Source: an uncultured Bacilli bacterium
GTDB taxonomy: Bacteria > Bacillota_I > Bacilli_A > RF39 > UBA660
Direction: 5' to 3'
Assembly (NCBI GenBank): GCA_934154785.1
Contig: CAKPGL010000002.1
Span: 75,805 to 139,804, forward strand
DNA length: 64,000 nucleotides
The translations under genes and the position numbers were made by a program. This document shows positions 8,516 through 34,836 of the stretch, piece by piece (within the stretch, counting starts at the first letter, position 1; the number at the start of each line of letters is the position of its first letter). The notes under the pieces were generated by a model that saw only the letters and a program-made list of their open reading frames with translations, made no database searches and was not told the DNA's origin.

Positions 8516-10669
8516 ATGCAGAAGACTAGAAATAAGACTTTATTGTTGCTTATCTTTTTAGTTGGTATGGTATTGATTCCAAATAGAGCTTTGGCAGAAA
8601 CATTACCAGACAAAATTGGAAACATTTATGAATTAAGGGATAATGAAAGCTTAAAAGGATATACACCATTACGAATAGTAGCTGGTGGTGTTGCTAATTT
8701 AGGACATTATTTGGGAACTGAAACTCAATATTTACCTTATAAAATATCTGCTAGTTCAATAACCGGTACTGGGAGAGATGCAACTGTTACAGGAATTAAC
8801 TATGCTGTTTACTGTACGTTCTTTGGTAAAAATTCTCCAGCACAGAATTCTTATGTATCTTATTGTGGCGATGTTATTAGTGGCTGTTCTGCAACCGCTA
8901 ATGAACAAAAAAATCAAATCCCAGCTTATTGTACAAAAAAAAGTGGTTGGGATGAAGGTACTAAAGCAGGAGTAGCATATATAATTAAACAAGCTGGTGG
9001 TCGTACGTTTGGAGGTGCTAGTCTAGGTAATTATTATAATGCCGAAAGTACAATTAACCAATTTTTGTATGCTGTGAGTGTTAATAAAGATATTTGTAAT
9101 ATCCAAAAGTGTAATGCTGATTCTACTGGTGGTACTAATAGTGACAATAAAATTGTTGATTATAATACCACTGATGTAAATACTGCTAAAGCACTTCGAG
9201 ATACTGTTAATGCATTTACAAATAAAGGTGCATTAACAATAAACGCACCAACAAGTAAAGAATTAACATATGATGATGAAGCAAATGTCTGGAAATCTTC
9301 AAGATTTTCAATTAGTAATTTAGATAAGTATCCTAGTAATAATCAAGAAATAACTGTTGTTTTAAAAGATGCAAATGGTAAAACTTATCCTGGATATGCC
9401 TATATAACTAATATAGGTAGTGAGGTTCAAGTTGGTGTATGTAATAAAAACAATGGTGATTATTGTAAAGATATAACAAACTTTAAAAAGCTGACTTCTG
9501 GAACTTACACTGTAGAGATCACTGTTAAAGGTACTTATTCTTATGATATTGCTGAAAATTATGATTGTGGTACTTTATTTCAAAGTATTACACCTGCAAT
9601 TACAGATACGGTAAATGTTAATGAAAAACAATCTATAACATTTAATTTAAAGATTGCTGATGAACTTGGTTCAATTAAAATTAAAAAAGTAGATGCTGAT
9701 ACTAATGAAGAAGTTACTGGAGCTACAATTACAGTTAGGGGTAAAGATAACGATTTTAATCAACCATTTACATTAACTAATAAAAGTACTATTACAATAA
9801 ACAATTTAAAGTATGGTACTTATGAAATAATTGAAACTAAAGCACCAAATGGTTATGAAAAAGATACAAGAACTTATGAAGTTGTTATATCAAAAGATCA
9901 TCTCTTAGAAGAGGTGGTAATTTCTAATAAAAGAGTTGAAGATAAGGTTGGAATATTTTCTATATTGAAAATTGATGAATCCGGTAATAAATTAGGTGGT
10001 TCAACTTTTGAATATTATTATGATGGCGCTGATAGTGTAACATTTGAAAATGTCACGAAGGATGGAGTAAGAATCACAGATGTTACTTTAAATAAAAGAA
10101 TTTGTTTAGAAGAAACTAAAGCACCAAATGGTTATAAATTAAATTCTAAAAAATTTTGTTTTAAAATAATTGACACTGGTGAAATTAAATTAGATGAAGA
10201 TTATGATTTTATTAAAATAACTAAAAATAAAACAATGTATGTACTAAATGTAATTAATTATCCAGTTGATAAATCTATTGTTAAAATAAAAAAAGTAGAT
10301 TCTAAGGATAATACAAAAGTTTTAGCTGGTGCTAAACTTCATATAATAGATGAGTCAGGTAAAGAAGTAGTTGAACCTTGGATTACAACAACTGAAGAAT
10401 TTGTTATTACAGATTTAAAGGCTGGTAAATATTATATTGAAGAATTAGACGCACCAGAAGGTTATACATTAAATAAAACAAAACAAGAATTTACAATAGA
10501 ATCTAATGAAACTCGCATAACTATAGAGTTTATTAATGAAAAACCTGTTAATGTTCCTAATACTTTGTCTAATATATCTAAATTAGTTATTTTATTAGCA
10601 GTAAGTGGAATATTAGTAGGAGCAATTCTAGTATACAAAAATAAATTTAGTGAGGATGGTATAAAATGA
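8516..10669 (+). CDS. Sortase-dependent pilin/adhesin with three CnaB-type domains and a non-canonical sorting signal VPNTLSN.
   Basis: Signal peptide; three pilin E-box-like motifs (YEIIETKAPNGY, ICLEETKAPNGY, YYIEELDAPEGY). The C-terminus is ...NVPNTLSN, then a hydrophobic TM, then a KNKFSEDGIK charged tail. Confidence 0.75.
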   Translation: MQKTRNKTLLLLIFLVGMVLIPNRALAETLPDKIGNIYELRDNESLKGYTPLRIVAGGVANLGHYLGTETQYLPYKISASSITGTGRDATVTGINYAVYCTFFGKNSPAQNSYVSYCGDVISGCSATANEQKNQIPAYCTKKSGWDEGTKAGVAYIIKQAGGRTFGGASLGNYYNAESTINQFLYAVSVNKDICNIQKCNADSTGGTNSDNKIVDYNTTDVNTAKALRDTVNAFTNKGALTINAPTSKELTYDDEANVWKSSRFSISNLDKYPSNNQEITVVLKDANGKTYPGYAYITNIGSEVQVGVCNKNNGDYCKDITNFKKLTSGTYTVEITVKGTYSYDIAENYDCGTLFQSITPAITDTVNVNEKQSITFNLKIADELGSIKIKKVDADTNEEVTGATITVRGKDNDFNQPFTLTNKSTITINNLKYGTYEIIETKAPNGYEKDTRTYEVVISKDHLLEEVVISNKRVEDKVGIFSILKIDESGNKLGGSTFEYYYDGADSVTFENVTKDGVRITDVTLNKRICLEETKAPNGYKLNSKKFCFKIIDTGEIKLDEDYDFIKITKNKTMYVLNVINYPVDKSIVKIKKVDSKDNTKVLAGAKLHIIDESGKEVVEPWITTTEEFVITDLKAGKYYIEELDAPEGYTLNKTKQEFTIESNETRITIEFINEKPVNVPNTLSNISKLVILLAVSGILVGAILVYKNKFSEDGIK

Positions 10670-12096
10670 AATTAAAGAAAATATTTATATTGTTAATACT
10701 ATTGATTCCAGCAATATTTGCTGGTGGTATAGTAAAAGCTGAGGCAATAACATTTGGTGTTTATGCTAAAAAAGTTGGTACTTCAAATAGTGAAAAAATT
10801 GCTGGAGTTGGATATGAAATATATCAAGACAGCTGTTCTAGTGGTACTAAATTATATAGTGGTACTACAATACAAGGTGATTTTACACGCCATAGTATAG
10901 AAAGTGGTACTACTATTTGTATTAAACCAACAGAAGTACCGTCGACAGATTATAAATTACCTGGCGAAGCAATTAAAACTGTTACTGGTAGTAATAGCAC
11001 TCATGGTATTATTCTAGAAGAAAACACTAATAAAACTAAAATTAGCTTTGCTTATGCAATTACAGATAAAACAGATGGTCATATGATTGATAGTGGAAAA
11101 ATCAGAATTAAACAAGGTGGCGTAAAAGATAACAAATGTACTGGTACAGATATTAAAATCTCAGAAGATGGTTACGGTTACACTTCGAGTACTCCTGTAC
11201 AAATTGGCCCATATGAGTATACAACTGCTCCTAGTAAGGTTTGCATTGAATTAGTTGAAGAGATAGCGGGTTATCAATATCCAGCTGCTCAAGAATTTAC
11301 AGTTGATAGTGATTTAGTTAATACTTACTTGGTTCTTGATAAGAAAAGTACAGATGAGCCTAGCCAAAAAACCAGTTATACAATTGGATTAAAAGCGAAA
11401 GATACAAGTAAGTATTTAAAAGGGAAAATTACTATTACAGATGGTACCGTAGAAAATGGAAGTTGTAGTGGAAATGATCTTGTTTCTAAATTTACAATTT
11501 TCTCCGCTTCAACTAAAACTACTGCAATGCCAAAAAGTACAACAGGTCATATTTGCATAGAAGTTAATAGTTTAGATAACACAAGTTATAAGATACCAGA
11601 ACCAAAAGAATTTACTTATGAAGATGATGGTACTTATGAAATTGAGGTAGAAAAAAAAGATGATGGTAGTACTGTCACTCATCCAACAATAAAGGTTGGA
11701 TTTAAATATAAGGACAATTATGTAAAAGGTATTCAATTTGCAATTTATAAAAAAATGGGTTCTGGTGATAAGTGTAGTACTATTCTGAGAGATAGGTTAA
11801 CAAGTATTAGTAAATTACAATCTTTAGAACTTAGTTCACTTGAAGAAATGCCGAATTCAGTTTGCATTGAGGTTGTTCAGAGTAACCTTGGCAATTATAG
11901 TGTTAAAGAGCATGCAGTGTATACCGTAAAGAATGGTGTTGTGGAAATAGAACTTGGTGATAAAGTAATATCTCCCGATACTATGTCAAATGTATCTATA
12001 ATAGTTATTTCGGCCGGATTAATTGTTCTAATTTTGGGTGGTTACCTGTTATATACAAATAAAATAAATAAGGAGGAAAATTCAACTGAGAATTAA
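10666..12096 (+). CDS. Pilus subunit-like surface protein with four Cys-pair repeat domains and the sorting signal SPDTMSN.
   Basis: Signal peptide; four ~100-aa repeats, each with an N-terminal C(S/T)G and a ...CIE(V/L) motif. The C-terminus is SPDTMSN, then TM, then KINKEEN. Confidence 0.6.
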   Translation: MKLKKIFILLILLIPAIFAGGIVKAEAITFGVYAKKVGTSNSEKIAGVGYEIYQDSCSSGTKLYSGTTIQGDFTRHSIESGTTICIKPTEVPSTDYKLPGEAIKTVTGSNSTHGIILEENTNKTKISFAYAITDKTDGHMIDSGKIRIKQGGVKDNKCTGTDIKISEDGYGYTSSTPVQIGPYEYTTAPSKVCIELVEEIAGYQYPAAQEFTVDSDLVNTYLVLDKKSTDEPSQKTSYTIGLKAKDTSKYLKGKITITDGTVENGSCSGNDLVSKFTIFSASTKTTAMPKSTTGHICIEVNSLDNTSYKIPEPKEFTYEDDGTYEIEVEKKDDGSTVTHPTIKVGFKYKDNYVKGIQFAIYKKMGSGDKCSTILRDRLTSISKLQSLELSSLEEMPNSVCIEVVQSNLGNYSVKEHAVYTVKNGVVEIELGDKVISPDTMSNVSIIVISAGLIVLILGGYLLYTNKINKEENSTEN

Positions 12097-12110
12097 GAAT
12101 AGGTGAGAAG

Positions 12111-13733
12111 ATGAAAAAAAATAGATTATTTAATATATTAAAATTTTCTACATTAACATTGTTTACATTAGCTGCTGTGTTTCCTACAGTGATAAAGGCA
12201 GAAGATACAGATCCTGATGCTATTAAAATAGTAGAATATAGGGCTTGTACTGATTCGGGTGCTGGCTGGAAAGACCCAGAAAAATCAGCCGGATTAACTA
12301 TTGGTGCTAGTTCTAATTGCTTTTTGGCTCGAGGTTCTTCTTATAAATTAACAGCGTTATATAAAGACGGAACTTTGAATGATACTACGCCAACTGTTGC
12401 ACTTAGGTTAAATGTTAACTTACTTTCTCCGGCACAAGATAGATTAGATATTGTCAATAAAAAATTAGTTACTGATGATACTACTTGTAAAAAAATTGCC
12501 AATTATTATGGAAATGATGAGGGAATATATGCTGGACTAGGTCAGCTTTTAAAAGGTGTTGATGAAAGGCGTAAAGAGAAAAGTGATAATCACGTATATG
12601 TTACAACAGATGAACAGTATTTTGCTTCTTTGGCGATGAGTCAATTTATTTCTGAAAAATTAAACAAGAGTAGTTATGCATTAAAAGGCGAAAGTGTTTC
12701 AAATGACGCAATTGCAAGTCGTTATAATGAGTTAGAGGAAGGATATATTAAAGCTACTACTGCAGTACCAGCACAAATAAATAATAAAACTATTAAAACA
12801 TTTAAAATGCAATATATGATTGATGATAATAAAAAGGATTATTTATACAAATCTAGTTTTATTACTTTTAAAGATGCCACGCTATTAGATAAATATACTT
12901 CAAATAAAGGACAAGTTGAGTTATTTAACTTTACTTTAAAGAATAAAGATACCGGTGATTTATATGATGATTATGTTTATGCAGCAATTCAGAATAATAA
13001 ATCAACTAGAGCTCATGATTTAGTATATCAATTTGGTATTTGTGATAGTCTAGACTTTCAAGTAAAAGATTATGCAAATTGTAAGGCATTAAAGGGTAAA
13101 AAGTTACCTGCAGGTAATTACGAATTAGTTGTATCAGTTAATGATGCTATAACATATTCAAAAGTTAAAACTATTTATTCTTGTACATCTTCTAGTTCTA
13201 CTACAGGATATACACCTATTGTATTAAGTAATGGTAATTATTCAACTGCTAAAAATTCAATTAAATATGATTTAACAAGTGAATTTACAGTAGAATCAAA
13301 TCCAACACCTGTGGTTCCAGATGATAAACCAATAGAAAAAATTGGTACTATTAAGGTTAGTATTGTTGACAAAAATAAGAAATTATTAACTGGTGTTAAA
13401 TTTCAAATTTGTGAAGATAGAGATTGTAATTCAATAAAAAATACTGCTACTTCAACAAATGAATCTTATATTGCACCTAATATACCATTTGGTAAGTATT
13501 ATATTGTGGTTACTGAAGTACCTAAAGGATATGTTGTTCCTACTACAGTTGAAGTAGCTGAATTAAGTACTTCTAACACAGTTGCAGAAAAAACTATAGT
13601 AATAGAAGCTACTACTAATGTACCTGATACTTTATCTAATATATCTAAATTATTCTTGATTTGCGGTATAGTTGGTATAATAGCGGGAACTTATTTAGTG
13701 TATAGTAATGCTAAGAAGCAAGAAGAAGTATAA
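12111..13733 (+). CDS. Pilin/adhesin with a C-terminal CnaB domain and the sorting signal VPDTLSN.
   Basis: Signal peptide; CnaB-like block IGTIKVSIVDKNKKLLTGVKF...FGKYYIVVTEVPKGY. The C-terminus is VPDTLSN, then TM, then NAKKQEEV. Confidence 0.7.
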   Translation: MKKNRLFNILKFSTLTLFTLAAVFPTVIKAEDTDPDAIKIVEYRACTDSGAGWKDPEKSAGLTIGASSNCFLARGSSYKLTALYKDGTLNDTTPTVALRLNVNLLSPAQDRLDIVNKKLVTDDTTCKKIANYYGNDEGIYAGLGQLLKGVDERRKEKSDNHVYVTTDEQYFASLAMSQFISEKLNKSSYALKGESVSNDAIASRYNELEEGYIKATTAVPAQINNKTIKTFKMQYMIDDNKKDYLYKSSFITFKDATLLDKYTSNKGQVELFNFTLKNKDTGDLYDDYVYAAIQNNKSTRAHDLVYQFGICDSLDFQVKDYANCKALKGKKLPAGNYELVVSVNDAITYSKVKTIYSCTSSSSTTGYTPIVLSNGNYSTAKNSIKYDLTSEFTVESNPTPVVPDDKPIEKIGTIKVSIVDKNKKLLTGVKFQICEDRDCNSIKNTATSTNESYIAPNIPFGKYYIVVTEVPKGYVVPTTVEVAELSTSNTVAEKTIVIEATTNVPDTLSNISKLFLICGIVGIIAGTYLVYSNAKKQEEV

Positions 13734-18988: not shown

Positions 18989-20698
18989 ATGTTTAAGGTG
19001 ATTTACTTGGAAAAATTAGATTCTATTTTTGAATATTATCAAGGTACTAAAGCATATTCCTTATTTTTATTAAACCAATTTGGCGATAATCAAAATGGCA
19101 CTTATATATTAGATAAAAACAACTACAATGCTGCTAGAGTAGCCTTTATTTCTATAATATTACTTGATATTAAAGAAGATATATTAGAAGACTTAGGAAA
19201 TTCTAATTTTAAATCTAATATATTTAATGATGAACTTATCAAATCAGTTAATTTACTTGCTACTAAAGATGGTGATAACTACGTAATAAACAATTACAGA
19301 TTTAAAGATGCTCCTACTTTAGTAGCGGTTCTTAGAAATAAACTTGCACATGGGAATTTTACTTTAGATACTGAACATTCTAGAGTTATAATTGATATAA
19401 ATGGACAAAACGTTATTCTTAATATAGATAAACTTGCCTTATTTGTTGCTTCATCTTTAAAAAACACTTATTTAAAAATGAAAAAAGGTAATTATACTAA
19501 AAATATTTTAATATCAAACAAAATATATGCTAATAGAAAATTACCTCTTTCTAAAGAAAAACTGATAGAGTTAATTACTACCTTTAATAAAATTAGTTTT
19601 ACTTTAGAAAATAAAGTAGGTGGTGATATACCTAAATATATTTTAGAGGAAGCTGATGCCTCAATTTATGCTTATAATAAAACTGGAGATATAAAATATA
19701 TAAATCATTTTAATAATAGTTATGAAGATTATAAATTAAACTCTACTAGAGAAAAAATAAAATATGATAAACAAAGTTTTGATTATATTGTGGATAATGT
19801 ATTGAAACAAACAGAAAAAAATAATTTATCTTATGATGCACAAGTAGAAGTATTAAAGCCTTTACTTGATAAGAAATTTTTAAAAAAGGAAAAAATCGAT
19901 GAAAGAATGGGTGCATTTAAAAATTTAATTTTATTAGATGCAGCTTATAAAATAAATAGTATTGATCAGAATAAAATAGGTAAATATATATCTACATATT
20001 ATACACCTGATACTTATTTTAGTATTAATAACGATTCTTTAGCGGCTTCCGCTTTAGCGATGTTTCAGGCTCTATTTTCATATTCTAATGATGATTTATA
20101 TAATGATGGTTTAGAATATGAAAATAATTATAATAGTGGTTTAGATTATTCCAAATTAGATTTATCAAAAATAAAAATTAGTTATATAGAACCTGATAAT
20201 AAAATTATAAGTATTCTAAATGAAAAGAAAGTAGCTAGAGAAAAAGGTATATTAGAATTACAAGGTTCTATAAATAAAAAAATGACAAATTTAAATAATG
20301 TTAAAGCAAAGGGTAATATTACCGCTATTGAAAATATAGAAAAATCTTTAATTGAGAGTAACGAAAATTTATCAAATCTTCAAAATGACTTAAATAATAT
20401 AAATCAAAAAATAAGTAATATTACAACGTATCAACTTAATAATAAATTACATTTAACAAATAAGGCTATAATTACTTGTATAAGAAATTCTATTGCTCAC
20501 GGCCATTATAAATTTGTATATTCTAATGATTACAGTGATGTTAAAATAGTTTTTAATGATATATACGAAGGTAAAATAACATTTAGTGCTGAAGTAAATA
20601 TAATTGATTTTATAGAATTGTTGTATGAAAATGATCATGTAATTATAGATTTTGTTGAAAATAATATAGAAAGAACTAGACAAGGTAAATCTATCTAG
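18989..20698 (+). CDS. Protein of unknown function with two HEPN-like Rx4HG motifs (LRNKLAHGNF, IRNSIAHGHYKF) flanking a coiled-coil segment; predicted RNase.
   Basis: Two R-N-x-x-A-H-G motifs at residues ~115 and ~510. Heptad-like N/L/I/K-rich segment at ~400-480. The start is uncertain: ATG 18989 or the TTG after the SD AAGGTGA. Confidence 0.45.
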   Translation: MFKVIYLEKLDSIFEYYQGTKAYSLFLLNQFGDNQNGTYILDKNNYNAARVAFISIILLDIKEDILEDLGNSNFKSNIFNDELIKSVNLLATKDGDNYVINNYRFKDAPTLVAVLRNKLAHGNFTLDTEHSRVIIDINGQNVILNIDKLALFVASSLKNTYLKMKKGNYTKNILISNKIYANRKLPLSKEKLIELITTFNKISFTLENKVGGDIPKYILEEADASIYAYNKTGDIKYINHFNNSYEDYKLNSTREKIKYDKQSFDYIVDNVLKQTEKNNLSYDAQVEVLKPLLDKKFLKKEKIDERMGAFKNLILLDAAYKINSIDQNKIGKYISTYYTPDTYFSINNDSLAASALAMFQALFSYSNDDLYNDGLEYENNYNSGLDYSKLDLSKIKISYIEPDNKIISILNEKKVAREKGILELQGSINKKMTNLNNVKAKGNITAIENIEKSLIESNENLSNLQNDLNNINQKISNITTYQLNNKLHLTNKAIITCIRNSIAHGHYKFVYSNDYSDVKIVFNDIYEGKITFSAEVNIIDFIELLYENDHVIIDFVENNIERTRQGKSI

Positions 20699-20723
20699 AC
20701 TAAAATTCAGGGGGGATATAAAA

Positions 20724-21719
20724 ATGGAAGGGACTAATAATTTATTTTCACAATTTAGTGAATTAGACAAAAAAGAATTAATTTCTTTTTTAGATAATTT
20801 TTATTTACATTATCGTAATAATTTGAATTTTAATGATACTACTTTAACTTTTGGTATTGAAATAGAATTTGAAAAAATTTTATTAGAGGAAGTAGAGCAA
20901 TTATTAATAAATAGTAATTTAAAAAACTGGTTAACCAAAAAAGAACGTTCTATAATTACGGGTGGTGAAATAAATAGTACTATATTAAATGATAATCAAA
21001 CAAATTGGTTAGGAATTAAAAAAGTTTGTTCTATTTTAAAAGAAAACAACGCTAAAATCAGTGAAAATTGTGGTGGACATGTACATTTTGGTAGTAATAT
21101 TTTAGGTGATAATTATAATAGCTGGCTAACATTTATAAAATGTATTATTGCTTTTGAAAAAGTTTTATTTAGATTTGGTTATGGTGAAGAAGTAAAAGAA
21201 AGACATTCTGTTAGAAAATTTGCTTATCCTGTTTCTTATTTATTAAAAGAAATACTTTATTCTGAAAATATAGACTTTAATAATATAAATACTGAAAAAC
21301 TATTAGATATTATAAAAGATAGAACTAGTAAAAGAAGTTCTGTTAGTTTTCAAAAAATTTGTATTAAAAATTTAGATAATATAAAAAATAATACAATAGA
21401 ATTTAGATTTCCTAATGGTACAATAGAAGAAATTATTTGGCAGAACAATATAAATACTTTAGGTAAACTTTTATTAGCGGTTAAAAATGATAAAATAGAT
21501 ATTGATGTTATTGATTTTTTACTTAAAAATATTCAAAAAGAAAGTAACATTAATATTTTACTAATGGACTATGGTTCTATTCATTTAAATACAGCTTTGT
21601 TATTTTGTGATATGATTTTTGATAATGATTTAGATAAATTATATTTTCTTCGTCAGTATATAAAAAATTCTTATAAAGATACTTATCAAGAACGTCAAAA
21701 AAAATTTATTATTAATTAA
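20724..21719 (+). CDS. Glutamine-synthetase-fold carboxylate-amine ligase (amidoligase)-like protein.
   Basis: N-terminal GxExEF-type strand (TFGIEIEFE) and metal-binding CGGHVHFGS, reminiscent of GS GSGMHxHxS and the Amidoligase_2/GCS2 families. Confidence 0.4.
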   Translation: MEGTNNLFSQFSELDKKELISFLDNFYLHYRNNLNFNDTTLTFGIEIEFEKILLEEVEQLLINSNLKNWLTKKERSIITGGEINSTILNDNQTNWLGIKKVCSILKENNAKISENCGGHVHFGSNILGDNYNSWLTFIKCIIAFEKVLFRFGYGEEVKERHSVRKFAYPVSYLLKEILYSENIDFNNINTEKLLDIIKDRTSKRSSVSFQKICIKNLDNIKNNTIEFRFPNGTIEEIIWQNNINTLGKLLLAVKNDKIDIDVIDFLLKNIQKESNINILLMDYGSIHLNTALLFCDMIFDNDLDKLYFLRQYIKNSYKDTYQERQKKFIIN

Positions 21720-21769
21720 AATGTAAGAATTATTTATTTATAGTATTCCATACTAATTATGGTGATAGT

Positions 21770-22204
21770 ATGAAGTATGTATTAAATATAATGATTCTTT
21801 TTATTTGTGTTTTTTTACTTTTAATTATAGATAATGATTATATAAGTGTTCCAGTTGTATCATTAGATAGTGATTATTATCAAATGTATGATATATATGC
21901 TGATAACTTAACTACTAAAAACTTTACTAAATACTTTAGTGATACATCTAATTTTATTGCGGTATATCCTGATATAAATTTAATTTATAAAGAAAAACTA
22001 GGTAATATATATTTTGAGTGTAAAAATAAATTTAACTTAGATGCTTTTATTTCTTATTATAAAAAAGTACTTGAAAAAAATAATTATAAAAATGATTTAG
22101 TAAATATTGATTATTATGGCGTTTCTATAAAAAAGATTATGGTATACGCTAATAAAGAAGAATTAGCACAAATTTTAAATAATTGTACAATTTGTTTTAT
22201 TTAA
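21770..22204 (+). CDS. Small protein with an N-terminal signal/TM helix; unknown.
   Basis: The ORF has SD TGGTGA; N-terminus MKYVLNIMILFICVFLLLII. Confidence 0.4.
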   Translation: MKYVLNIMILFICVFLLLIIDNDYISVPVVSLDSDYYQMYDIYADNLTTKNFTKYFSDTSNFIAVYPDINLIYKEKLGNIYFECKNKFNLDAFISYYKKVLEKNNYKNDLVNIDYYGVSIKKIMVYANKEELAQILNNCTICFI

Positions 22205-22246
22205 ACCTAGCTAGTATGTTATAATTACTATGTCAGGGGTGATTTA

Positions 22247-23086
22247 ATGATCTGTTATGGTATTAATGATATGTATCGTAAAGAAATATATAAATGTGAT
22301 GAAAAACAAATTTTATTATTTTTTGATGAACTAGATAGTGCCACTAAAAATATTTATTTACGTATAATGGTAACAGATGGTTTACAGGTTTTAGAAAGAA
22401 GAAGACAATATAATGAAAGTGATCAATATTCAAAAAGGTTATATAAAATTCTAAGTAATTCTGACTTTGAGCATATTAAGTCTGTTTTAGAAGATAACTA
22501 TATTTTATTTCAAGTATTATTTGTAAATGCTAAAGGATTTTATAAAATGCCTATCGTAGATAGATGTCTTTTAGTTGGAGAAAGAGAAAATAAAATCCTA
22601 AATTATAAATTACTATCTTTAAACCCTTTTTATCTAGTAGATGTTTGTGTATACACTATTCAAAAAGATATTGATAGTATTTACTACTATTATAATGATT
22701 ATCAAAATAAGTTAGGTAGTAAACAGCTTAAAAGTTTTTATCAGTTGGTCTTAGTAATGATGGAAAAACTAAAAGAGGAGAATACTAATTTATATAATAA
22801 AAACTTTTTAGAATTTTTAAAAAATTTTTATGTTGGAAATAAATTTTTACAATCTATAGATGAAATTTCTTCTTTAGAAACAAAACTTTATCATGATATG
22901 CTAGAAAAAGAGGAATTAGATTATGTAATAAGTCTTCTTGAAAGTACACCAGAAGATCTTATGAAAGTATTAGCGATTTCTTTTGCGTATCACTCAGATA
23001 TGGCTGGCACTAAAGAGGAGAAAAACTTTATAAATGAGAATGTTAATTCTGATATGATAAAAAAATTACAACTTAATAATAATTAA
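22247..23086 (+). CDS. Hypothetical alpha-helical protein (279 aa).
   Basis: The ORF has a strong SD AGGGGTGA and a -10-like TATAAT upstream. No motif recognised. Confidence 0.4.
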   Translation: MICYGINDMYRKEIYKCDEKQILLFFDELDSATKNIYLRIMVTDGLQVLERRRQYNESDQYSKRLYKILSNSDFEHIKSVLEDNYILFQVLFVNAKGFYKMPIVDRCLLVGERENKILNYKLLSLNPFYLVDVCVYTIQKDIDSIYYYYNDYQNKLGSKQLKSFYQLVLVMMEKLKEENTNLYNKNFLEFLKNFYVGNKFLQSIDEISSLETKLYHDMLEKEELDYVISLLESTPEDLMKVLAISFAYHSDMAGTKEEKNFINENVNSDMIKKLQLNNN

Positions 23087-23191
23087 AGAACTATTAGGAA
23101 ATTAACGAATATTTTCTTAATAGTTTTTTTAATAATGATTTGCTTTTTTTAAAATAATATTATAAAATATCCCTTGTTTTGGGGGATGATT

Positions 23192-26100
23192 ATGAAATCT
23201 ATCAGTGAGTTTGATTTAAAGGTTTTAGGTAACACTTTTATTCCAGATATTTTTAAAATTAAGATTATTAATAAACTTAGTATTGAAGACATTATATTTC
23301 ATCAAAAAAAATTTTGTCCTAATCTTGGATTGTTAGATGGGAATTATCTATTAAAATTAGGATTAAAATATCGTAAAAGAGAAATTCTTGAATATTTTAA
23401 GTCCTTTGATGTAGATGATACGGTAAATTTTTCTGTTTTAAAAAGTATACTTATAATAGATGAACATTTAAATAATTATATAATAAAGGTACTTGACATT
23501 TCTGTTATTGATAAACTTATTTCCGGTAATATAAATAGTGATGAAACTTTTAAAAGAATATGTAGGTTACGTAAGAATGATGTTTATGCATTAATTAATA
23601 CCGCTATTAAAGATAATAGATATCAAGATTATGTTAGTTATTGTACACCAGATAGATTAAAGGAGTATATTATAAAAAAAGTTGATATTAACTATCTAAT
23701 ATTGGATTTGACATCCACTAATTCTACTTTAACCAAAACTATTTTAAAGTATAGAAAAAAAGATATTGTTGAATATGTTAATTTAAACTCCAATAACATT
23801 CCTGAGTTAGAAAATTTGTTAAAAATGGATTTGCCTAAAGAAGTTTATAAAATGCTATTAGAGAAATTTCCTATTGATAATAGAATGATTTCTTATATAT
23901 TTTTACATTGTTCTACTGATTTAAAAGATTTATTATTTTTACTTTATCCAGATAAAGTATATGCTTGGGTGGATGAATTTCTAATTGGTGATAAACACTT
24001 TGATATAATTCAACTTAGATATAATAAATTAACATCTTATATTGTAAATAAGCTAAACCTTGAACAATTAGATGATGTAATAAAAGGTAATTTAACGATT
24101 TATTATAGTGACTTTATTAATGAATTATTTAAAGTTAGAAAAGAAGATATCATTAGTATAATAACAGAAAATGTTTCTTTAGATAATTCAAAAATAATAG
24201 ATTATTTATCTTTAAAACTACCTGAAAATATATTAAAGTCTATTATGTACTGCATTGATGTTAATGAAAACATATTAAATATAATTTTAAAAAATGGTAA
24301 TTCTAGTGTTATAGAAAATGTATTTAAAATATATAAAAATGAATTATTACTTATAATTAATAAAAATTCTAAAACTGATAGAATAGCATTCTTAGATAAG
24401 TATTTAAGACAATATGCTTATCCAATAACTTTACAAATAGAATTATTGAAAGACTTAACCGATGAAGAGATAATTTATATTATGTCACAAGGCGTTTTTG
24501 GATATGCGTTAAAGGATAAAATATATGAATTATATAAAGATAGAATTAATAAGATATACAGTAATTTATTATTAAGTGATATAGAAAAAGCAACTACAAT
24601 TTTTAAAAATTCCGCTATAACTGATTTTAGATCGGATATAATTAATAATTATGATTTTAAATACTTACGTTATTTTTTAGATGAAATGAATGAAACGGAA
24701 AAAGAAAAACTATATAAAAAATTCCCTAGGGAACTTAAAGAAATGCTAAGAGCTGAATATTCTAATGATTTATTAGAATTTATAAAAAGAAGGGTTTTAG
24801 ACTGCAATAGTGTAGTTTTAACTTTAAGCCTGAAGTTACTTACTTATGATGATATTATTTTTGCTTTAAAAAATAATATTGATTTTAAATATTACTATAA
24901 TGAAAAATTAAATAAATTAATGGAATCAGCTATAAAAAGTAAAGCTAATGATATAAAGAATTCTCCTTATGATGAATGTTTAATCTTTTTGAAGTCTCTA
25001 AGAGAAAAATTTGATGATTTATTTATTGTCTTTTTAAATAGCATAGAACTTGATGATGATTTCTTACATAAATTATTTATTGAAAGAGGTCTATCTGATA
25101 AACAAAAAGATATTTTATTTAAGATGAAAAGCAATGATATTTTAAGAATTGTTAAAAATAAATTATTAAATGATGAAGTAGATCCTATTGAATATATTCA
25201 AAAGGGTACCCCAGATGATGTGCTAGAACTTGCACTATCTTATATTGAAAAAGATAGAGTAATAAGTTTATTAAATGATCCCAATTTTATTAACAGAAAA
25301 AGTATTGGAAAAAGCTTTGCCTTAAAATTAGCCATAATAGTAAATGTTAATAAAGAGAATGTTCAAGAAGTAGAAAATCTTGTCAAATATTATTCTAAAG
25401 ATATATATGAATTTATTAATAATTATGAAAAAATATATTCTTTTTTAAAACTTAGTAGTATAGATGTTTCAAAGTTTTGGCAATATTCCTTAAATACAAG
25501 TTATAACTTTATAAGCGATATAGTTAAAATATACGAAGATGATTTAGATATGTTTTTACGTGTTAAGGATATATTATTTACATATGTTTATGATGATAAC
25601 AATAAATATTCTTATCAAAGTTTTGTAAATATTATAAAGAATTATAGTAGATATAAAAAACTATGTATATCACTTACTGAAGTAGAAAATTTAGGCGCAA
25701 TTAACTTTAATAATATTAAATTATTATTTAATCAAGATAAACTTATACCAAATATAAATATGTATAATGACTGTGGTAACATTATTAATGTGATAAAGGA
25801 TGAATATATGACAATGTTAAAAAAATGTTCATCAATTGATGAATATAAAGATACTTTATTACAACTATTATTTAATCACAATATTAAATCAGTTGAAGAA
25901 ATGCTTAATAATTATGGTAAAGTTAGTGATTTATTACAACTTAAATATTATAATTTACATAATAAAGAAGTATTAGATAAGATAGACTGTGTTATACCTT
26001 ATACTGAATTAATGGAAGAAATATTATATTGTGATGATATTAATGCTTTAAAAAGAACAATTGATGATACTATTAATAATATAAATTCTATTTTAGTAGA

Positions 26101-27487
26101 TTTTAATTATACTAATTACGATGATTTGATGCGCGAATTATACGCTATAGAAATGGATATGAACTTATCTAAGGTTGGTTATAATGTTGATGTAGATAGT
26201 GTAAAATTAGAAGAAAAATCTAAATTATATGGAGTAGATATATATGATTTTAGAGATAAGCAATATGCTTTATTAGCACATGTATTAAGTGATTCAGAAA
26301 ATATAGATGATTTAATACAGGGTAATTCTAGTGGAACATTTAATTTCATATCACTTTCCGCAATAAGTTATAGAATGCAATCATATTATTATGGTGCTAA
26401 AAATATGATATTTGGTTATGATGAAATGCCTAATTCTAATTTTGTTTGTAGTTCCGATAGCAACATGGGAACAAATTATTCAATAACAAAAAATTCAATT
26501 GAGATGACCCCTATTAATAGAAAACAAAGAGGCTTATTAGAAGTTAGTGATACTGATAGTAATTCTGAAATATTATCTTTAAGAGAAGGTATGAAACCTA
26601 AGTATATTATTTGTCCTGGTAGACTACCTTCTTCAGAGGAACTTAGATGTGCTTTAAAATATAATTTAAAAATTGTTTTAACTCAAGAAATTAATGAAAC
26701 TATTCTTTCTCCTAAACCAATTAATAAACTAGTAGAACCTAAACCTAAAGTATCAAAGGAATATTTAATAGAGTTTAGAAATAAAGTAATTAAAACTGGT
26801 AATAAAAATAAGGTAGCGGTTATAACAGATGCTCATGGTATATTAGAACCTACTTTAGCGGTACTGGAAGATATACGTAAAAAAGGAATAACTAAAATAT
26901 ATTCCTTAGGAGATAATATAGGTACTGGTTCTAATCCTAGTGAAGTGTTAGATATATTAAACCACTATGGAGTAAAAAGTATTAAAGGCAATCATGAATT
27001 GTATCTAATAGATGGGGTAGATGAGTATAAAAAGCATTTAATTGAAACTGGTGCGTATGAAGAGGAAACAATTAACACAAGTTGGACGCGTGACAATTTA
27101 ACAGCAGAACAAGTAGTAGATATATCTAAATATGATAATTATGTAGAATTAGATGTTGCGGGCAACAAGGTATTATTATGCCATTACTTATATGACTATA
27201 ATGAAAACAAACCATTATATGATATAACTAAATATGATTTAGTTATTCAAGGTCATAAACATTTTCAAGCACAATCTGGAAAAATTGTAACATTAAAAGC
27301 AATAGGTATTGGTAATAAAAGTAATGATGATATAGGTAACGCTACTTATATGATTATTGATTTAAATGATAAAGAACATCCATATGAAATAATAAATGTT
27401 CCTTATGCCTATAAAAACTCTATTAATGATGAAAATGTTTCTTCTAATAATTGTAAACAAAAAATAATGAATTGGATTGGTAAATAA
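23192..27487 (+). CDS. Giant (1432 aa) protein: ~1150-aa N/K/I-rich alpha-helical N-terminal region plus a C-terminal calcineurin-like metallophosphoesterase domain.
   Basis: The C-terminal ~260 aa carry an intact MPP motif set: ITDAHG (DxH), LGDNIGTG (GDxxxxG), GNHE, and GHKH. No Walker A anywhere. The start was moved to the ATG 8 nt after the SD GGGGGA. Confidence 0.6.
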   Translation: MKSISEFDLKVLGNTFIPDIFKIKIINKLSIEDIIFHQKKFCPNLGLLDGNYLLKLGLKYRKREILEYFKSFDVDDTVNFSVLKSILIIDEHLNNYIIKVLDISVIDKLISGNINSDETFKRICRLRKNDVYALINTAIKDNRYQDYVSYCTPDRLKEYIIKKVDINYLILDLTSTNSTLTKTILKYRKKDIVEYVNLNSNNIPELENLLKMDLPKEVYKMLLEKFPIDNRMISYIFLHCSTDLKDLLFLLYPDKVYAWVDEFLIGDKHFDIIQLRYNKLTSYIVNKLNLEQLDDVIKGNLTIYYSDFINELFKVRKEDIISIITENVSLDNSKIIDYLSLKLPENILKSIMYCIDVNENILNIILKNGNSSVIENVFKIYKNELLLIINKNSKTDRIAFLDKYLRQYAYPITLQIELLKDLTDEEIIYIMSQGVFGYALKDKIYELYKDRINKIYSNLLLSDIEKATTIFKNSAITDFRSDIINNYDFKYLRYFLDEMNETEKEKLYKKFPRELKEMLRAEYSNDLLEFIKRRVLDCNSVVLTLSLKLLTYDDIIFALKNNIDFKYYYNEKLNKLMESAIKSKANDIKNSPYDECLIFLKSLREKFDDLFIVFLNSIELDDDFLHKLFIERGLSDKQKDILFKMKSNDILRIVKNKLLNDEVDPIEYIQKGTPDDVLELALSYIEKDRVISLLNDPNFINRKSIGKSFALKLAIIVNVNKENVQEVENLVKYYSKDIYEFINNYEKIYSFLKLSSIDVSKFWQYSLNTSYNFISDIVKIYEDDLDMFLRVKDILFTYVYDDNNKYSYQSFVNIIKNYSRYKKLCISLTEVENLGAINFNNIKLLFNQDKLIPNINMYNDCGNIINVIKDEYMTMLKKCSSIDEYKDTLLQLLFNHNIKSVEEMLNNYGKVSDLLQLKYYNLHNKEVLDKIDCVIPYTELMEEILYCDDINALKRTIDDTINNINSILVDFNYTNYDDLMRELYAIEMDMNLSKVGYNVDVDSVKLEEKSKLYGVDIYDFRDKQYALLAHVLSDSENIDDLIQGNSSGTFNFISLSAISYRMQSYYYGAKNMIFGYDEMPNSNFVCSSDSNMGTNYSITKNSIEMTPINRKQRGLLEVSDTDSNSEILSLREGMKPKYIICPGRLPSSEELRCALKYNLKIVLTQEINETILSPKPINKLVEPKPKVSKEYLIEFRNKVIKTGNKNKVAVITDAHGILEPTLAVLEDIRKKGITKIYSLGDNIGTGSNPSEVLDILNHYGVKSIKGNHELYLIDGVDEYKKHLIETGAYEEETINTSWTRDNLTAEQVVDISKYDNYVELDVAGNKVLLCHYLYDYNENKPLYDITKYDLVIQGHKHFQAQSGKIVTLKAIGIGNKSNDDIGNATYMIIDLNDKEHPYEIINVPYAYKNSINDENVSSNNCKQKIMNWIGK

Positions 27488-27494
27488 TATATAA

Positions 27495-27540
27495 AAAGAA
27501 TCTACCAAGAATTAATCATTTAATTCCTGACAGATTCTTT
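27495..27540. terminator. Bidirectional nested hairpin (AAAGAATCT...AGATTCTTT enclosing GAATTAAT-cat-TTAATTC) between the convergent giant gene and the HIT gene.
   Basis: Inverted repeats read directly from the sequence. It overlaps the HIT stop codon. Confidence 0.45.
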
Positions 27541-27897
27541 TAGTATGTTATAAATGTCTTCTACTTTTTTAATTTCTTGTTTATCTTTATAAAATGGTTT
27601 TAAATGTAAATGAAAGTGTTTTACTTCTTGAATACAACCATTATTTTGAATTAAGGTTAAACCATCTATATGAAGTTTATCTTCAAGTAGTTTTTTCATT
27701 TTTTGTGCTATTTTAAATATGTGGTTCATAGTTGCTTCATCCATATCACTTAAATTTACAATGTGTTTTTTAGGTATAATTAATGTATGACCATTTGTAT
27801 CAGGGTTAATATCTAAAAATACTTTTACGATATCATCTTCATAAATAGTATAAGAAGGAATACTTCCAGAAATAATTTTACAAAAAATACAATCCAT
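27520..27897 (-). CDS. HIT-family (histidine triad) nucleotide hydrolase.
   Basis: Histidine-triad motif HFHLHL and the N-terminal CIFCKI motif. Confidence 0.8.
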   Translation of the reverse strand: MDCIFCKIISGSIPSYTIYEDDIVKVFLDINPDTNGHTLIIPKKHIVNLSDMDEATMNHIFKIAQKMKKLLEDKLHIDGLTLIQNNGCIQEVKHFHLHLKPFYKDKQEIKKVEDIYNILKESVRN

Positions 27898-32637: not shown

Positions 32638-33045
32638 ATGTTAGTAGGTAGTTATGGCTCTTTAGTAATGAAAGATAATACTATTAAAATCCCTAAAAAG
32701 TTACAAGGTGATTTTAAGAGTAGTATAATTGTAAGTTTTGATGCAAGTTTAGAATGTATTGTTATTATACCTATAGAGCGCTTGCCAAAGATTCAAAAAA
32801 AAGCAGAAAAAGCAAATAGTATGTTTGTTTCAATACTAAATAATTCAAAAACTTATTTGGTAGAAAAACCTGAAGTCTTAAAGATAGACCCAAATTTTCT
32901 GCAATTGGCAGGTATAAAAAGGGAATGTGTATTTTTAGGAATGTTAGATTATGTAGAACTTTGGGATAAAGAGAAGTTTGAGTCCTACTTTGCTAATATG
33001 GATGAAGAATACATTAAAGAGCAATTAAAAAAGTTTGGATTTTAA
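32638..33045 (+). CDS. Divergent MraZ paralog.
   Basis: Has the same length and two-repeat architecture as MraZ, but is weakly similar to the canonical copy downstream. It has its own TTTACT-17-TATAAT promoter. Confidence 0.5.
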   Translation: MLVGSYGSLVMKDNTIKIPKKLQGDFKSSIIVSFDASLECIVIIPIERLPKIQKKAEKANSMFVSILNNSKTYLVEKPEVLKIDPNFLQLAGIKRECVFLGMLDYVELWDKEKFESYFANMDEEYIKEQLKKFGF

Positions 33046-33116
33046 TTAATAATCATTTGATTTAATTCAAGTGATTTTTATTTTTAGGAAAAATTAATAA
33101 AAAAGTGTAAAAAACA

Positions 33117-33180
33117 TTTACAAAAAGGGAATAAAATAGTACAATTGTGGTAGATAGTGGACGATAGTGGGGAAAAGTGG
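33117..33180 (+). promoter_or_regulatory. Pmra promoter (TTTACA-17-TACAAT) followed by an MraZ operator: four GTGG boxes at exactly 10-bp spacing.
   Basis: GTGG at 33147, 33157, 33167 and 33177, between the -10 element and the mraZ ATG at 33190. Confidence 0.65.
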
Positions 33181-33189
33181 TGATTATAC

Positions 33190-33624
33190 ATGTTTCTGGG
33201 TTCTTATTATTATACAATTGATGAAAAAGGAAGAATTGTTATTCCTGTAAAGTTACGTGCAGATTTGGGTAACGAATTTATTCTTACTTGTGACTTAGAT
33301 GGATGTTTATCACTTTATCCTAAAGCATCTTGGAATGTAATTATTGCTAAATACAAAGAATTACCAAATGTAAAAAATGCTCGTGCATATTTACGTTTTG
33401 TGTTATCGTCTGCTAGTAACTGCCAACTAGATAAACAAGGTCGATTAAGCATTAATTCTAATTTAATTCAATACGCAGGTATAAAGAAAGAATGTATCAT
33501 AATGGGTGTAGATGATCACCTAGAAATTTGGAGTAAGGAAAGATGGAATGAATTCCTTGCTAATAATCAAGATAATTTAGTAGCGATGGCTGATGAATTA
33601 TTTTATGGTACAAGTAATAAATAA
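33190..33624 (+). CDS. mraZ: Transcriptional regulator MraZ.
   Basis: MFLGSYYYTIDEKGRIVIPVKLR..., canonical MraZ. Confidence 0.85.
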   Translation: MFLGSYYYTIDEKGRIVIPVKLRADLGNEFILTCDLDGCLSLYPKASWNVIIAKYKELPNVKNARAYLRFVLSSASNCQLDKQGRLSINSNLIQYAGIKKECIIMGVDDHLEIWSKERWNEFLANNQDNLVAMADELFYGTSNK

Positions 33625-33626
33625 GT

Positions 33627-34544
33627 ATGCATATTAGTGTTTTATTAAACGAAAGTATTGAATATTTAAATTTAAAAGAAGATAGTGTAATAGTTGACTG
33701 TACACTAGGTTATGGTGGTCATAGTAGTAATGTGCTAAAGGAAATTAAAAAGGGGTTTCTTTTCGCCTTTGATCAGGATGAAGAAGCTATTAAATTTAGT
33801 AATAAAAGACTAAGCGAAATTGCTTCTAATTATGAAATTATTTATAGTAATTTTGTAAATATAAAAAAAGAATTAGAAAAAAGAAATGTTAAAGAGGTAG
33901 ATGGTATTTTATATGATTTAGGAGTATCATCGCCACAACTTGATCAAGCTGATAGAGGATTTAGTTTTCATAATGATGCAGTCTTAGATATGCGTATGGA
34001 TAAAAATCAAAGTTTGTCAGCACTAACTGTAGTAAATGAGTATTCTTTATCTGATTTAATAAGAATATTTCGTGACTATGGTGAAGAAAAATATGCTAGT
34101 AGTATTGCTAAAAAGATAGTTGACTATCGAAGTAATAAAGAAATTAGAACTACTGGCGAATTAGTAGACATAATTAAAACTGGTGTACCAGAAAAATATA
34201 GAAGAGAACATCATCCAGCAAGAAAAGTATTTCAAGCGATTAGGATTGAGGTAAATCATGAATTAGATGTTTTTGAAAGTAGTTTAAAGCAAGCTTTAGA
34301 TTTAATCAAAATTGGTGGTCGAATTTGTGTTATTACTTTCCATTCTTTGGAAGATAGAATTTGTAAAAATATATTTAAAGAAGTTAGTAGTGTTCCAAAA
34401 GAATTAGCGGGGTTACCAATAATTCCAAAAGAATATCAGCCTAAGTATAAAGTTATCGCTAATATAGCACCAACCAATACAGAAATAGATGAAAATATAC
34501 GTTCAAGAAGTGCTAGACTTCGTGTAATAGAAAGGGTAAGATAA
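33627..34544 (+). CDS. rsmH: 16S rRNA m4C1402 methyltransferase RsmH.
   Basis: HISVLL...GHS...YDLGVSSPQLD motifs. Confidence 0.85.
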   Translation: MHISVLLNESIEYLNLKEDSVIVDCTLGYGGHSSNVLKEIKKGFLFAFDQDEEAIKFSNKRLSEIASNYEIIYSNFVNIKKELEKRNVKEVDGILYDLGVSSPQLDQADRGFSFHNDAVLDMRMDKNQSLSALTVVNEYSLSDLIRIFRDYGEEKYASSIAKKIVDYRSNKEIRTTGELVDIIKTGVPEKYRREHHPARKVFQAIRIEVNHELDVFESSLKQALDLIKIGGRICVITFHSLEDRICKNIFKEVSSVPKELAGLPIIPKEYQPKYKVIANIAPTNTEIDENIRSRSARLRVIERVR

Positions 34545-34545
34545 A

Positions 34546-34836
34546 ATGAAAAAAAGAAAAATTGCAAAATTTACTAAAGGTGAAAAATTGCTTTATTGTT
34601 TTACTGCTTTTTCTATTGTAGCTATATTTTTAATAAAGATATTTTGTGGTGCTGGTGTTAGTAATCTAAAAATGAGTATTGAAAAAACGGAATATAAAAT
34701 AAATAACCAAAAGAAAACTAATGAGAGTTTAACTATGAAAGTTAATGAACTTACTTCTTTTGATAATATAAAAGAAGTAATTGAAGATTTAGGACTTGCC
34801 TATAACAACGAAAATATTATTATAATAGATAAATAA
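34546..34836 (+). CDS. ftsL: FtsL-like cell-division protein (small, TM plus coiled coil).
   Basis: Its position after rsmH, a single TM, and a short helical periplasmic part. Confidence 0.5.
   Translation: MKKRKIAKFTKGEKLLYCFTAFSIVAIFLIKIFCGAGVSNLKMSIEKTEYKINNQKKTNESLTMKVNELTSFDNIKEVIEDLGLAYNNENIIIIDK

Follow-up and report, generated by a model that had tools for sequence, protein, structure and literature searches.

The SidE proteins of Legionella carry a mono-ADP-ribosyltransferase (mART) and a phosphodiesterase domain in one polypeptide (PMC11668277). Calcineurin-like and Nudix enzymes have been described as partners that process ADP-ribose (ADPr) in NAD/ADPr systems (PMC9503650). Here we analyse a giant gene of an uncultured gut Bacilli bacterium whose product may pair activities of these kinds. 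The gene occupies positions 23192-27487 of a 64,000-nucleotide stretch of contig CAKPGL010000002.1 (positions 75,805 to 139,804 of the forward strand); this whole stretch is referred to as the window, and positions are counted from its first letter. The protein is composed of a variable N-terminal region, a conserved helical segment, a conserved beta-rich domain that was missed at first reading (the middle domain), and a C-terminal calcineurin-like metallophosphoesterase (MPP). The middle domain is novel and probably catalytic, and its structural model most resembles the fold of NAD-using ADP-ribosyltransferases (ARTs).

The two enzymatic parts resemble described proteins to different degrees. 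The MPP shares with PDB entries 3qfm, 3qfn and 3qfo the full motif set, including a GD whose adjoining Gly-rich loop has no Arg, but 3qfm is a single-domain chain of 270 residues, whereas the MPP ends a 1431-residue protein and follows a novel conserved domain. We take 3qfm to be SapH/Spr1479 of S. pneumoniae, a hydrolase of the Metallophos_2 / YfcE type with ATP, Ap4A and phosphodiesters as substrates; in the PDB it is labelled only 'putative uncharacterized protein'. Lambda phosphatase (1g5b) and the ApaH-like 2qjc belong to the same superfamily and have the same motif order (DxH, GD, GNHE, H, GHxH), but the Arg of their GDxxDRG motif is missing in the MPP and the similarity is weaker than that to 3qfm. 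The best structural matches of the middle-domain model are the ARTs CteC (8ux2), Tpt1 (7yw4), pierisin-1 (5h6m), MTX (2cb4) and DarT (7yk3). In the model the conserved His, Ser/Tyr and Glu appear on or after successive strands with a spacing compatible with that of ARTs; the matches have E-values of at least 0.2 and template modelling (TM) scores of at most 0.47, there is no profile match, and the middle domain differs from ARTs in an extra invariant Arg five residues past the Glu and in a C-terminal beta-alpha-beta extension. The DRTGG / HPr-kinase N-terminal domains (3l2b) match ~42 of the ~170 middle-domain residues and offer no counterpart for the remainder or for the invariant His and Glu. 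The likeness to SidE would be one of logic, with an NAD+-using transferase beside a phosphodiesterase that cuts the ADP-ribose pyrophosphate, and is an analogy only: the domain order is different, SidE is a family of secreted effectors, and homology to it was not detected. The phosphodiesterase of SidE is not known to be a calcineurin-like MPP.

A conserved domain ahead of the phosphoesterase

In an alignment with four full-length homologues, conservation was low over aa 1-~724, increased from aa ~725 and peaked at aa 1009-1179, which makes the middle domain the most conserved stretch of the giant protein apart from the MPP. Residue conservation was determined from 126 sequences. E1126 was present in 100%, R1131 in 99% and H1030 in 98%; S1087, S1088, N1091 and N1095 were kept in 94-96%, Q1112 and S1119 in 90%, S1059 in 89% and Y1066 in 88%. 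Conservation of this kind, above all that of E1126, R1131 and H1030, typically marks a site of catalysis or ligand binding. A Pfam scan of the middle domain in 94 members of the family (see below) did not yield a consistent family.

A confident model of the middle domain alone was obtained with AlphaFold2 (AF2) from a 94-sequence alignment, with a predicted local distance difference test (pLDDT) score of 94.2 and a predicted TM score (pTM) of 0.89; AF2 applied to aa 1000-1431 with 4 sequences reached a pLDDT of only 44. The model is beta-rich and contains ten strands and five short helices. Upon comparison with the PDB by Foldseek, 7 of the top 24 matches were ART folds, and these came from four ART families (ranks 1, 2, 3, 5, 6, 7 and 24: CteC twice, Tpt1 as third match, pierisin-1, MTX, and DarT twice). 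The best match, CteC, had an E-value of 0.2, a probability of 0.54 and a TM score of 0.47. Matches in a viral fold library were weak and mostly to unnamed or uncharacterised proteins. In the model H1030 is located at a strand end, S1059 and Y1066 at or after the next long strand, and E1126 opens a strand with a hairpin partner. This placement would fit the positions of the ART triads, H-Y-[EDQ] or R-[ST]-E, on beta1, beta2 and beta5, and their spacing. The ART triad of CteC is R65-S97-E220 (PMC10810742), and its spacing is comparable when the insertion in CteC is left out of account. Should the middle domain be an ART, the signature H...Y/S...E-x4-R would define a new clade.

The first-pass annotation described the ~1150 residues before the MPP as helical repeats, which describes aa 1-~1005, helix-like and with a weak repeat of ~65 residues, and does not apply to the beta-rich, globular aa 1009-1179. 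The same annotation had recognised the MPP with all its metal-ligand motifs and considered an active enzyme likely; the first point is confirmed and the second supported. Pfam profiles matched aa 1207-1391 above their cut-offs (Metallophos_2, PF12850, E 9.4e-11, 42.4 bits versus a cut-off of 27; Metallophos, PF00149, E 1.6e-08, 35.6 bits versus 21.5). The motifs are complete: D1213-x-H1215, G-D1241, G-N1267-H1268-E, H1331 and G-H1355-x-H1357. Among 112 relatives, between 110 and 112 retain each of the seven metal ligands (D1213, H1215, D1241, N1267, H1331, H1355 and H1357), and this conservation indicates that the MPP is intact and probably active. A lack of motif conservation among homologues, which would have refuted the first-pass annotation, was thus not seen. 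The histidine of GNH[E], H1268, is likewise His in 72 of the 112.

The profile match to 3qfm (E 4.9e-08) places aa ~1207-1408 onto chain residues 12-233 and thus covers nearly the whole domain. Other solved relatives are 3rqz, lambda phosphatase 1g5b (E 5e-05 to 1.5e-04) and the ApaH-like 2qjc. The phosphate-binding Arg in the GDxxDRG motif of PPP-type phosphatases is missing (LGDNIGTGSNP), and the MPP therefore groups with the Metallophos_2 / 3qfm type and not with the canonical protein phosphatases. The top NCBIfam match was PRK11439, a protein Ser/Thr phosphatase model, at 20.9 bits and far below the cut-off of 326. No accessory domain or equivalog model of SbcD/Mre11, CpdA or YfkN was matched in Pfam or NCBIfam at E<=1, in agreement with the earlier statement that the protein has none of these architectures; the nearest solved proteins are 3qfm and lambda phosphatase.

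The N-terminal part was characterised by composition and self-comparison. Residues 1-~724 are weakly conserved in the alignment with homologue P0004, and aa 1-~1005 contain 1-6 Pro+Gly per 100 residues (0-4 Pro and 0-4 Gly). Copies of a motif 'hKxRKxDIxxhI' are located at aa 59, 125, 186, 314 and 379, and self-comparison by hhalign gave weak matches (E ~1e-3) at offsets near 130, 196, 392 and 520, that is, at multiples of ~65 residues; self-BLASTP at E<=10 detected no internal repeats. The scarcity of Pro and Gly, the recurring motif and the weak self-matches make it likely that the N-terminal ~1000 residues form a degenerate repeat array, predicted from the sequence to be helical. The composition of this part is due mostly to the AT-rich genome and is not true low complexity. 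Pfam, NCBIfam, PHROGs, PADLOC and PDB sequences gave no match to the N-terminal region, so that no known family emerged here that would have explained it otherwise than as proposed at first. A transmembrane segment was not found (the maximum Kyte-Doolittle value, 1.6, lies within a charged stretch), and a membrane or secreted protein was rejected for want of a hydrophobic segment. A Walker A motif ([AG]xxxxGK[ST]) is absent from the entire giant protein, as had been noted before, and a STAND / AAA-type NTPase sensor was rejected on this ground. In the conserved helical segment F788, L992 and T993 are near-invariant (110 sequences).

Family members and their modular ends

The family came to light when a profile built from aa 725-1200 was used in an exhaustive HMMER search. 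This gave 159 cluster representatives at E<=1e-3, of which 108 also reached E<=1e-30, and most were 1100-1500 residues long. In most of the listed representatives, profile positions 2-475 are covered by a single continuous match. Local hidden Markov model searches of the listed proteins located the middle domain in 146 and the middle domain followed by the MPP in 113. Word-indexed protein searches were far less productive: the whole giant protein found 4 relatives and the 110-sequence alignment 3, since the low-complexity N-terminus swamps candidate selection. A word-indexed search with the middle domain alone found only P0005, an ENA contig of 1024 bp that encodes a 298-residue protein with a D-Ala-D-Ala carboxypeptidase N-terminus joined to a ~98% match to aa ~900-1055 of the giant protein, and that is most likely a chimeric metagenome assembly. 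A scan of GTDB with the giant protein as single query gave no matches.

Three architectures were distinguished. About 107 representatives, the giant protein included, have the helical segment and middle domain (the core) followed by the MPP; 11 have the core followed by a kinase-like module; and 6 giants of 1674-2776 residues have the core, the kinase-like module and the MPP. The module of ~320 residues follows the middle domain in 17 relatives and is absent from the giant protein itself. It is located at the C-terminus in P0113, P0115, P0118, P0120-P0122, P0126, P0134, P0136, P0137 and P0139, and between middle domain and MPP in P0123, P0128, P0129, P0131, P0132 and P0135. Its motifs are G-x-S-H, a K (in LKPG), D-x-K-x-x-N and a D 13 residues on (in YGIDKEQ); in ten aligned sequences G79, K99, D192-x-K194-x-x-N197 and D210 were invariant. 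The spacing presumably matches that of G52, K72, D166, N171 and D184 in protein kinase A. Pfam, PDB sequences and hhalign gave no support for a kinase, and the comparison with E. coli SrkA by hhalign was negative with a single-sequence, and hence insensitive, template; we therefore infer the kinase-like assignment from the motifs. One relative with the module showed a weak SMODS / oligonucleotide-cyclase match.

Because the kinase-like module replaces or supplements the MPP in these relatives, the helical segment and the middle domain are the constant core of the family and the C-terminal enzymes are modular. The comparative genomics proposed for the fusion found the order of middle domain and MPP kept in 113 proteins and showed that the MPP is not part of the invariant core. 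The first-pass picture of a scaffold or sensor fused to an effector is similarly right in part: it captured the helical part and the MPP and left out the separate, conserved ART-like domain at aa 1009-1179.

The family is confined to uncultured Bacillota (Firmicutes) and is unannotated. Three relatives with 61-62% identity to the C-terminal 432 residues occur in GTDB genomes of uncultured Bacilli (Hadza gut) and an uncultured Erysipelotrichaceae (RUG14259); the other members come from metagenomes, and all members that were located belong to uncultured Bacilli or Erysipelotrichaceae. Annotations read 'metallophosphoesterase' or 'hypothetical protein' only.

Possible functions of the giant protein

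In the reading that we favour, with somewhat less than even confidence, a helical recognition array would carry two coupled enzymes, a transferase or hydrolase of the NAD type and a nucleotide pyrophosphatase/phosphodiesterase, as suggested by sequence and model. The protein would be a stand-alone cytoplasmic enzyme of four parts: the variable array, the conserved helical segment, the ART-like domain and the binuclear MPP. The variable array of ~1000 residues would most likely bind a partner or substrate. The ART-like domain (~170 residues; invariant His...Tyr/Ser...Glu(+Arg)) would use NAD+ or a related nucleotide diphosphate, and either transfer ADP-ribose to a target on the helical array or cleave NAD+; the MPP would next cut the pyrophosphate or phosphodiester bond of the product or adduct. 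This coupled-enzyme reading is consistent with the intact and conserved MPP with 3qfm as its nearest solved relative, the conservation of the middle domain, the ranking of ARTs in Foldseek, the placement of H1030, S1059, Y1066 and E1126 in the model, the order of middle domain and MPP in the 113 proteins, and the nucleotide-pyrophosphate hydrolases (Nudix, HIT) that adjoin the gene in several lineages. In its logic it would resemble both SidE and the calcineurin-like and Nudix enzymes that act on ADP-ribose products in NAD/ADPr systems (PMC9503650). A wider proposal, which we regard as unlikely in its entirety, is an undescribed system of gut Bacillota in which a new ART-fold clade and a helical adaptor are combined with a 3qfm-type MPP, a kinase-like domain or both, usually together with a coupled peptide of ~54-106 residues. 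Such a system would carry out a two-step NAD+-dependent modification (ADP-ribosylation, then cleavage to a phosphoribosyl or phosphate mark) of a cellular or invader target chosen by the fast-evolving array.

Should the middle domain prove to be an active enzyme that uses NAD+, it would constitute a new clade in the ADP-ribosyltransferase superfamily, and the pairing of transferase and phosphodiesterase in bacteria would extend beyond the secreted Legionella effectors. It would also offer a first route to the function of giant proteins that form at least 159 sequence clusters in uncultured Bacilli of gut and rumen, for which the swap of phosphoesterase and kinase-like module and the small partner open reading frame (ORF) described below permit concrete genetic tests. 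If the middle domain is merely regulatory, the giant protein would be a lineage-restricted multi-domain phosphoesterase of modest interest.

Several observations weigh against the coupled-enzyme reading. Foldseek gave no match in the PDB at E<=0.001 and all TM scores were below 0.5. No ART model of Pfam was matched at E<=10 in the 94 members, and the middle domain did not match E. coli KptA in hhalign (probability 0.2%), the template again being a single sequence and insensitive. The last beta-alpha-beta unit (42 residues, aa ~1128-1169, aligned as 'IILPGGRxPTxEEIEIAKKYNLxFIxTQ') resembles the DRTGG segment of the CBS-pyrophosphatase 3l2b with an E-value of 0.005, which points to a regulatory module. 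Hpr_kinase_N was the Pfam family most often weakly matched (4 of 94 members), and DRTGG (PF07085) was matched in 1 of 94 (E 0.11); the DRTGG similarity does not extend over the whole domain, ~42 of ~170 residues being matched. In the MPP, the GNH[E] histidine is replaced by Ser in 32 of the 112 relatives. A kinase-like module that replaces or joins the MPP fits phospho-signalling at least equally well, and the coupling of ADP-ribosyltransferase and phosphoesterase is a prediction from sequence and model.

The middle domain might instead be a non-catalytic module of the DRTGG / HPr-kinase N-terminal type and the MPP a protein (Ser/Thr/His) phosphatase, in a phospho-signalling scaffold whose relatives carry the matching kinase-like module and whose array docks on some structure of the cell, perhaps the machinery of division or of the cell wall. 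We judge this, the main rival reading, rather unlikely. The segment match to 3l2b (aa ~1128-1169) and the weak Hpr_kinase_N and DRTGG matches argue for such a module, but the DRTGG-like stretch is a quarter of the middle domain, the 3l2b fold is not among the Foldseek matches, and the domain is beta-rich and not Rossmann-like. The MPP is related to the lambda Ser/Thr phosphatase 1g5b and its top NCBIfam match, far below threshold, is a Ser/Thr phosphatase model, yet it does not have the PPP Arg of GDxxDRG (GDNIGTG). Seventeen relatives contain a domain with the spacing of kinases, six of them in combination with the MPP, but this call was made from motifs and found no backing in Pfam, PDB or hhalign. 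Division and cell-wall genes are present at several loci (mraZ-rsmH in the window; murD-like; ftsEX-pcsB-whiA; minDE-rodA/ftsAZ), but only near the window and 4 of 13 homologue loci.

Somewhat less probable still is that the giant protein is an anti-phage or conflict sensor-effector, in which the variable array would sense an invader protein, upon which the C-terminal enzymes deplete NAD+ or nucleotides or modify a target, and the small ORF would be a regulator or antidote in most relatives; such a scheme would resemble that of the defence protein DSR2. The N-terminus is the most variable and the enzymatic end the conserved part; the dip in GC content and the strain-variable HEPN-like neighbour (see below) suggest an island; a coupled small ORF follows the gene in 9 of 13 homologues; and weak matches link one relative to SMODS / oligonucleotide cyclases and the structural model to phage polyvalent-type proteins. 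However, no PADLOC or PHROG match was found, the protein has no NTPase or other known switch, its neighbours are mostly housekeeping and lineage-dependent, gene and flanks are syntenic between strains with 91%-identical proteins, and the small ORF is absent from the window. A defence role, to which we give the same low probability, would be compatible with both the ART and the signalling biochemistry and finds no support in context or databases; the sensor function proposed in the first-pass annotation is accordingly plausible and without direct support, given the missing defence-system matches and the lineage-variable, housekeeping neighbours. The least supported of the readings, and a very improbable one, is RNA end-healing, in which a Tpt1/KptA-like ART would strip 2'-phosphates, the MPP would act as a Pnkp-like 2',3'-cyclic phosphodiesterase/phosphatase and the kinase-like module would act on 5'-OH ends. 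Tpt1 has a catalytic tetrad Arg-His-Arg-Arg. Tpt1 was the third Foldseek match, but its tetrad is not evident in the middle domain, where the invariant set consists of His, Glu and Arg with Ser and Asn, and the comparison with KptA was negative. RNase J and RNase R are encoded near two family members, but no RNA ligase is present in the giant protein or the neighbourhoods, and the kinase-like module does not belong to the P-loop type. A discussion of RNA-repair networks treats ART, calcineurin-like and Nudix enzymes together (PMC9503650), which is in line with such a combination.

Gene structure and genomic neighbourhood

The coordinates of the gene, its domains and the associated features are given in Table 1. 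The reading frame is open from an upstream TTG at 23174, and the ATG at 23192 is the likely start on account of the GGGGGA sequence 5 nt upstream. With the stop at 27485-27487 the ORF list and translation give 1432 codons, so that the length of 1432 residues reported at first counts the stop codon (the protein has 1431); the ORF is uninterrupted. Full-length homologues of the giant protein have 99, 91 and 51% identity, and one has 28% over the full-length alignment.

Table 1. Positions of the giant gene, its parts and the features around it, and of the small ORFs at homologue loci (coordinates of the respective locus).
Feature	Residues	Position	Strand	Evidence
Terminator-like hairpin and U-run after 279-aa ORF		23086..23132 (hairpin 23086-23128, then U7)	+	RNA fold
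Ribosome-binding site GGGGGA		23181..23186	+	5 nt 5' of ATG, read from sequence
Complete coding sequence, 1431 aa + stop		23192..27487	+	ORF list, translation, full-length homologues
Variable N-terminal region, presumed all-helical	1-724	23192..25363	+	Pro/Gly-poor; degenerate ~65-aa repeat
Conserved helical segment, always with middle domain across the family	725-1008	25364..26215	+	Profile match, conservation
Middle domain, beta-rich, ART-like	1009-1179	26216..26728	+	Conservation in 126 sequences, AF2 model, Foldseek
Calcineurin-like metallophosphoesterase domain, 3qfm / lambda-phosphatase type	1204-1431	26801..27484	+	Pfam, PDB profile matches, ligand conservation
Long hairpin between convergent giant gene and HIT gene		27488..27548	.	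RNA fold, terminator scan
Small ORF		L001 5312-5494
Small ORF		L008 11747-11932
Small ORF		L009 15272-15496
Small ORF		L010 15264-15572
Small ORF		L012 11019-11216
Small ORF		L014 6563-6751
Small ORF		L015 9067-9264
Small ORF		L016 13106-13426
Small ORF		L017 6031-6195

The upstream hairpin, which stands between the 279-aa ORF and the giant gene, has a folding free energy (ΔG) of -13.8 kcal/mol (z -5.3; none of 200 shuffles reached this stability). For the downstream hairpin the ΔG is -18.9 kcal/mol (z -6.3); the terminator scan calls the same hairpin on the minus strand, and it could terminate transcription in both directions. With a stable hairpin on either side, the giant gene looks like a transcription unit of its own. 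A promoter scan of this AT-rich DNA was uninformative (58 sites versus 51 expected). The GC content of the window is 0.20-0.33 and the plus strand carries nearly all genes. At 20001-26000, a region that spans the giant gene and its upstream neighbours, the GC content falls to 0.20-0.22, compared with 0.25-0.29 in most of the window.

The flanks in the window encode ApbE, an FMN-binding protein, SufC/BD/S, RNase J, MraZ, RsmH, ribosomal protein S2 (rpsB) and EF-Ts (tsf). These housekeeping genes (rpsB, tsf, rsmH, RNase J and Suf) identify the window as bacterial chromosome, and a prophage or plasmid origin was rejected. Gene context was compared between 13 homologue loci and the window, and no conserved operon was found across them; the neighbours are mostly housekeeping genes that differ between lineages, and an operon with conserved partners was rejected for this reason. 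Four lineages have a Nudix or HIT hydrolase next to the gene: Nudix enzymes were seen near P0053 and in the P0003 lineage, HIT in the window and in P0002. Division or cell-wall genes (ftsE, ftsX, pcsB-like, whiA, minD, minE, rodA, ftsA, ftsZ, murD-like, mraZ and rsmH) are found no more than a few kb from the giant gene, in the window (32638-34836) and at loci L008, L009, L010 and L001, a proximity that in small genomes could have arisen by chance. Two tandem MraZ-like ORFs precede rsmH in the window (32638-33045 and 33190-33624, plus strand), the first of which is a weak partial match, and the same arrangement is found in L013. One homologue locus contains spore-germination genes.

A small ORF of 54-106 aa is located directly 3' of the giant gene in 9 of the 13 homologue loci and overlaps the gene end in six; the motif 'L..L..hh..hDPxNK[VIY]F' is common to seven of these nine ORFs. 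By position and motif it represents an undescribed family of partner peptides, predicted to be translationally coupled. Six-frame translations of the window contain no homologue of it, and it is absent from the P0003 lineage as well. PADLOC gave no match for the giant protein or four relatives; one relative had a weak cyclase match.

L013 is a strain with a 91%-identical giant protein, and its flanking genes are syntenic with those of the window, with the exception of a 569-aa ORF at 18989-20698 (plus strand), which is present in the window and absent from L013, and is thus a strain-variable insertion. It belongs to no Pfam family and contains two HEPN-like RNxxAHG (Rx4H) motifs, which make it a candidate Abi-type RNase. 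Between this ORF and the giant gene (20724-23086, plus strand) lie three genes, one for an Amidoligase_2 protein of 331 aa, one for a 144-aa protein whose N-terminus is hydrophobic, and one for a 279-aa protein; all of them are kept beside the giant gene in L013. Residues 132-263 of the 279-aa protein weakly resemble aa 553-701 of the giant protein (BLASTP E 2.7e-4). Further upstream in the window, surface or pilin proteins of the SpaA type (prealbumin fold) are encoded in a cluster at 8516-13733 (plus strand), and a sortase gene adjoins the homologous cluster in L013.

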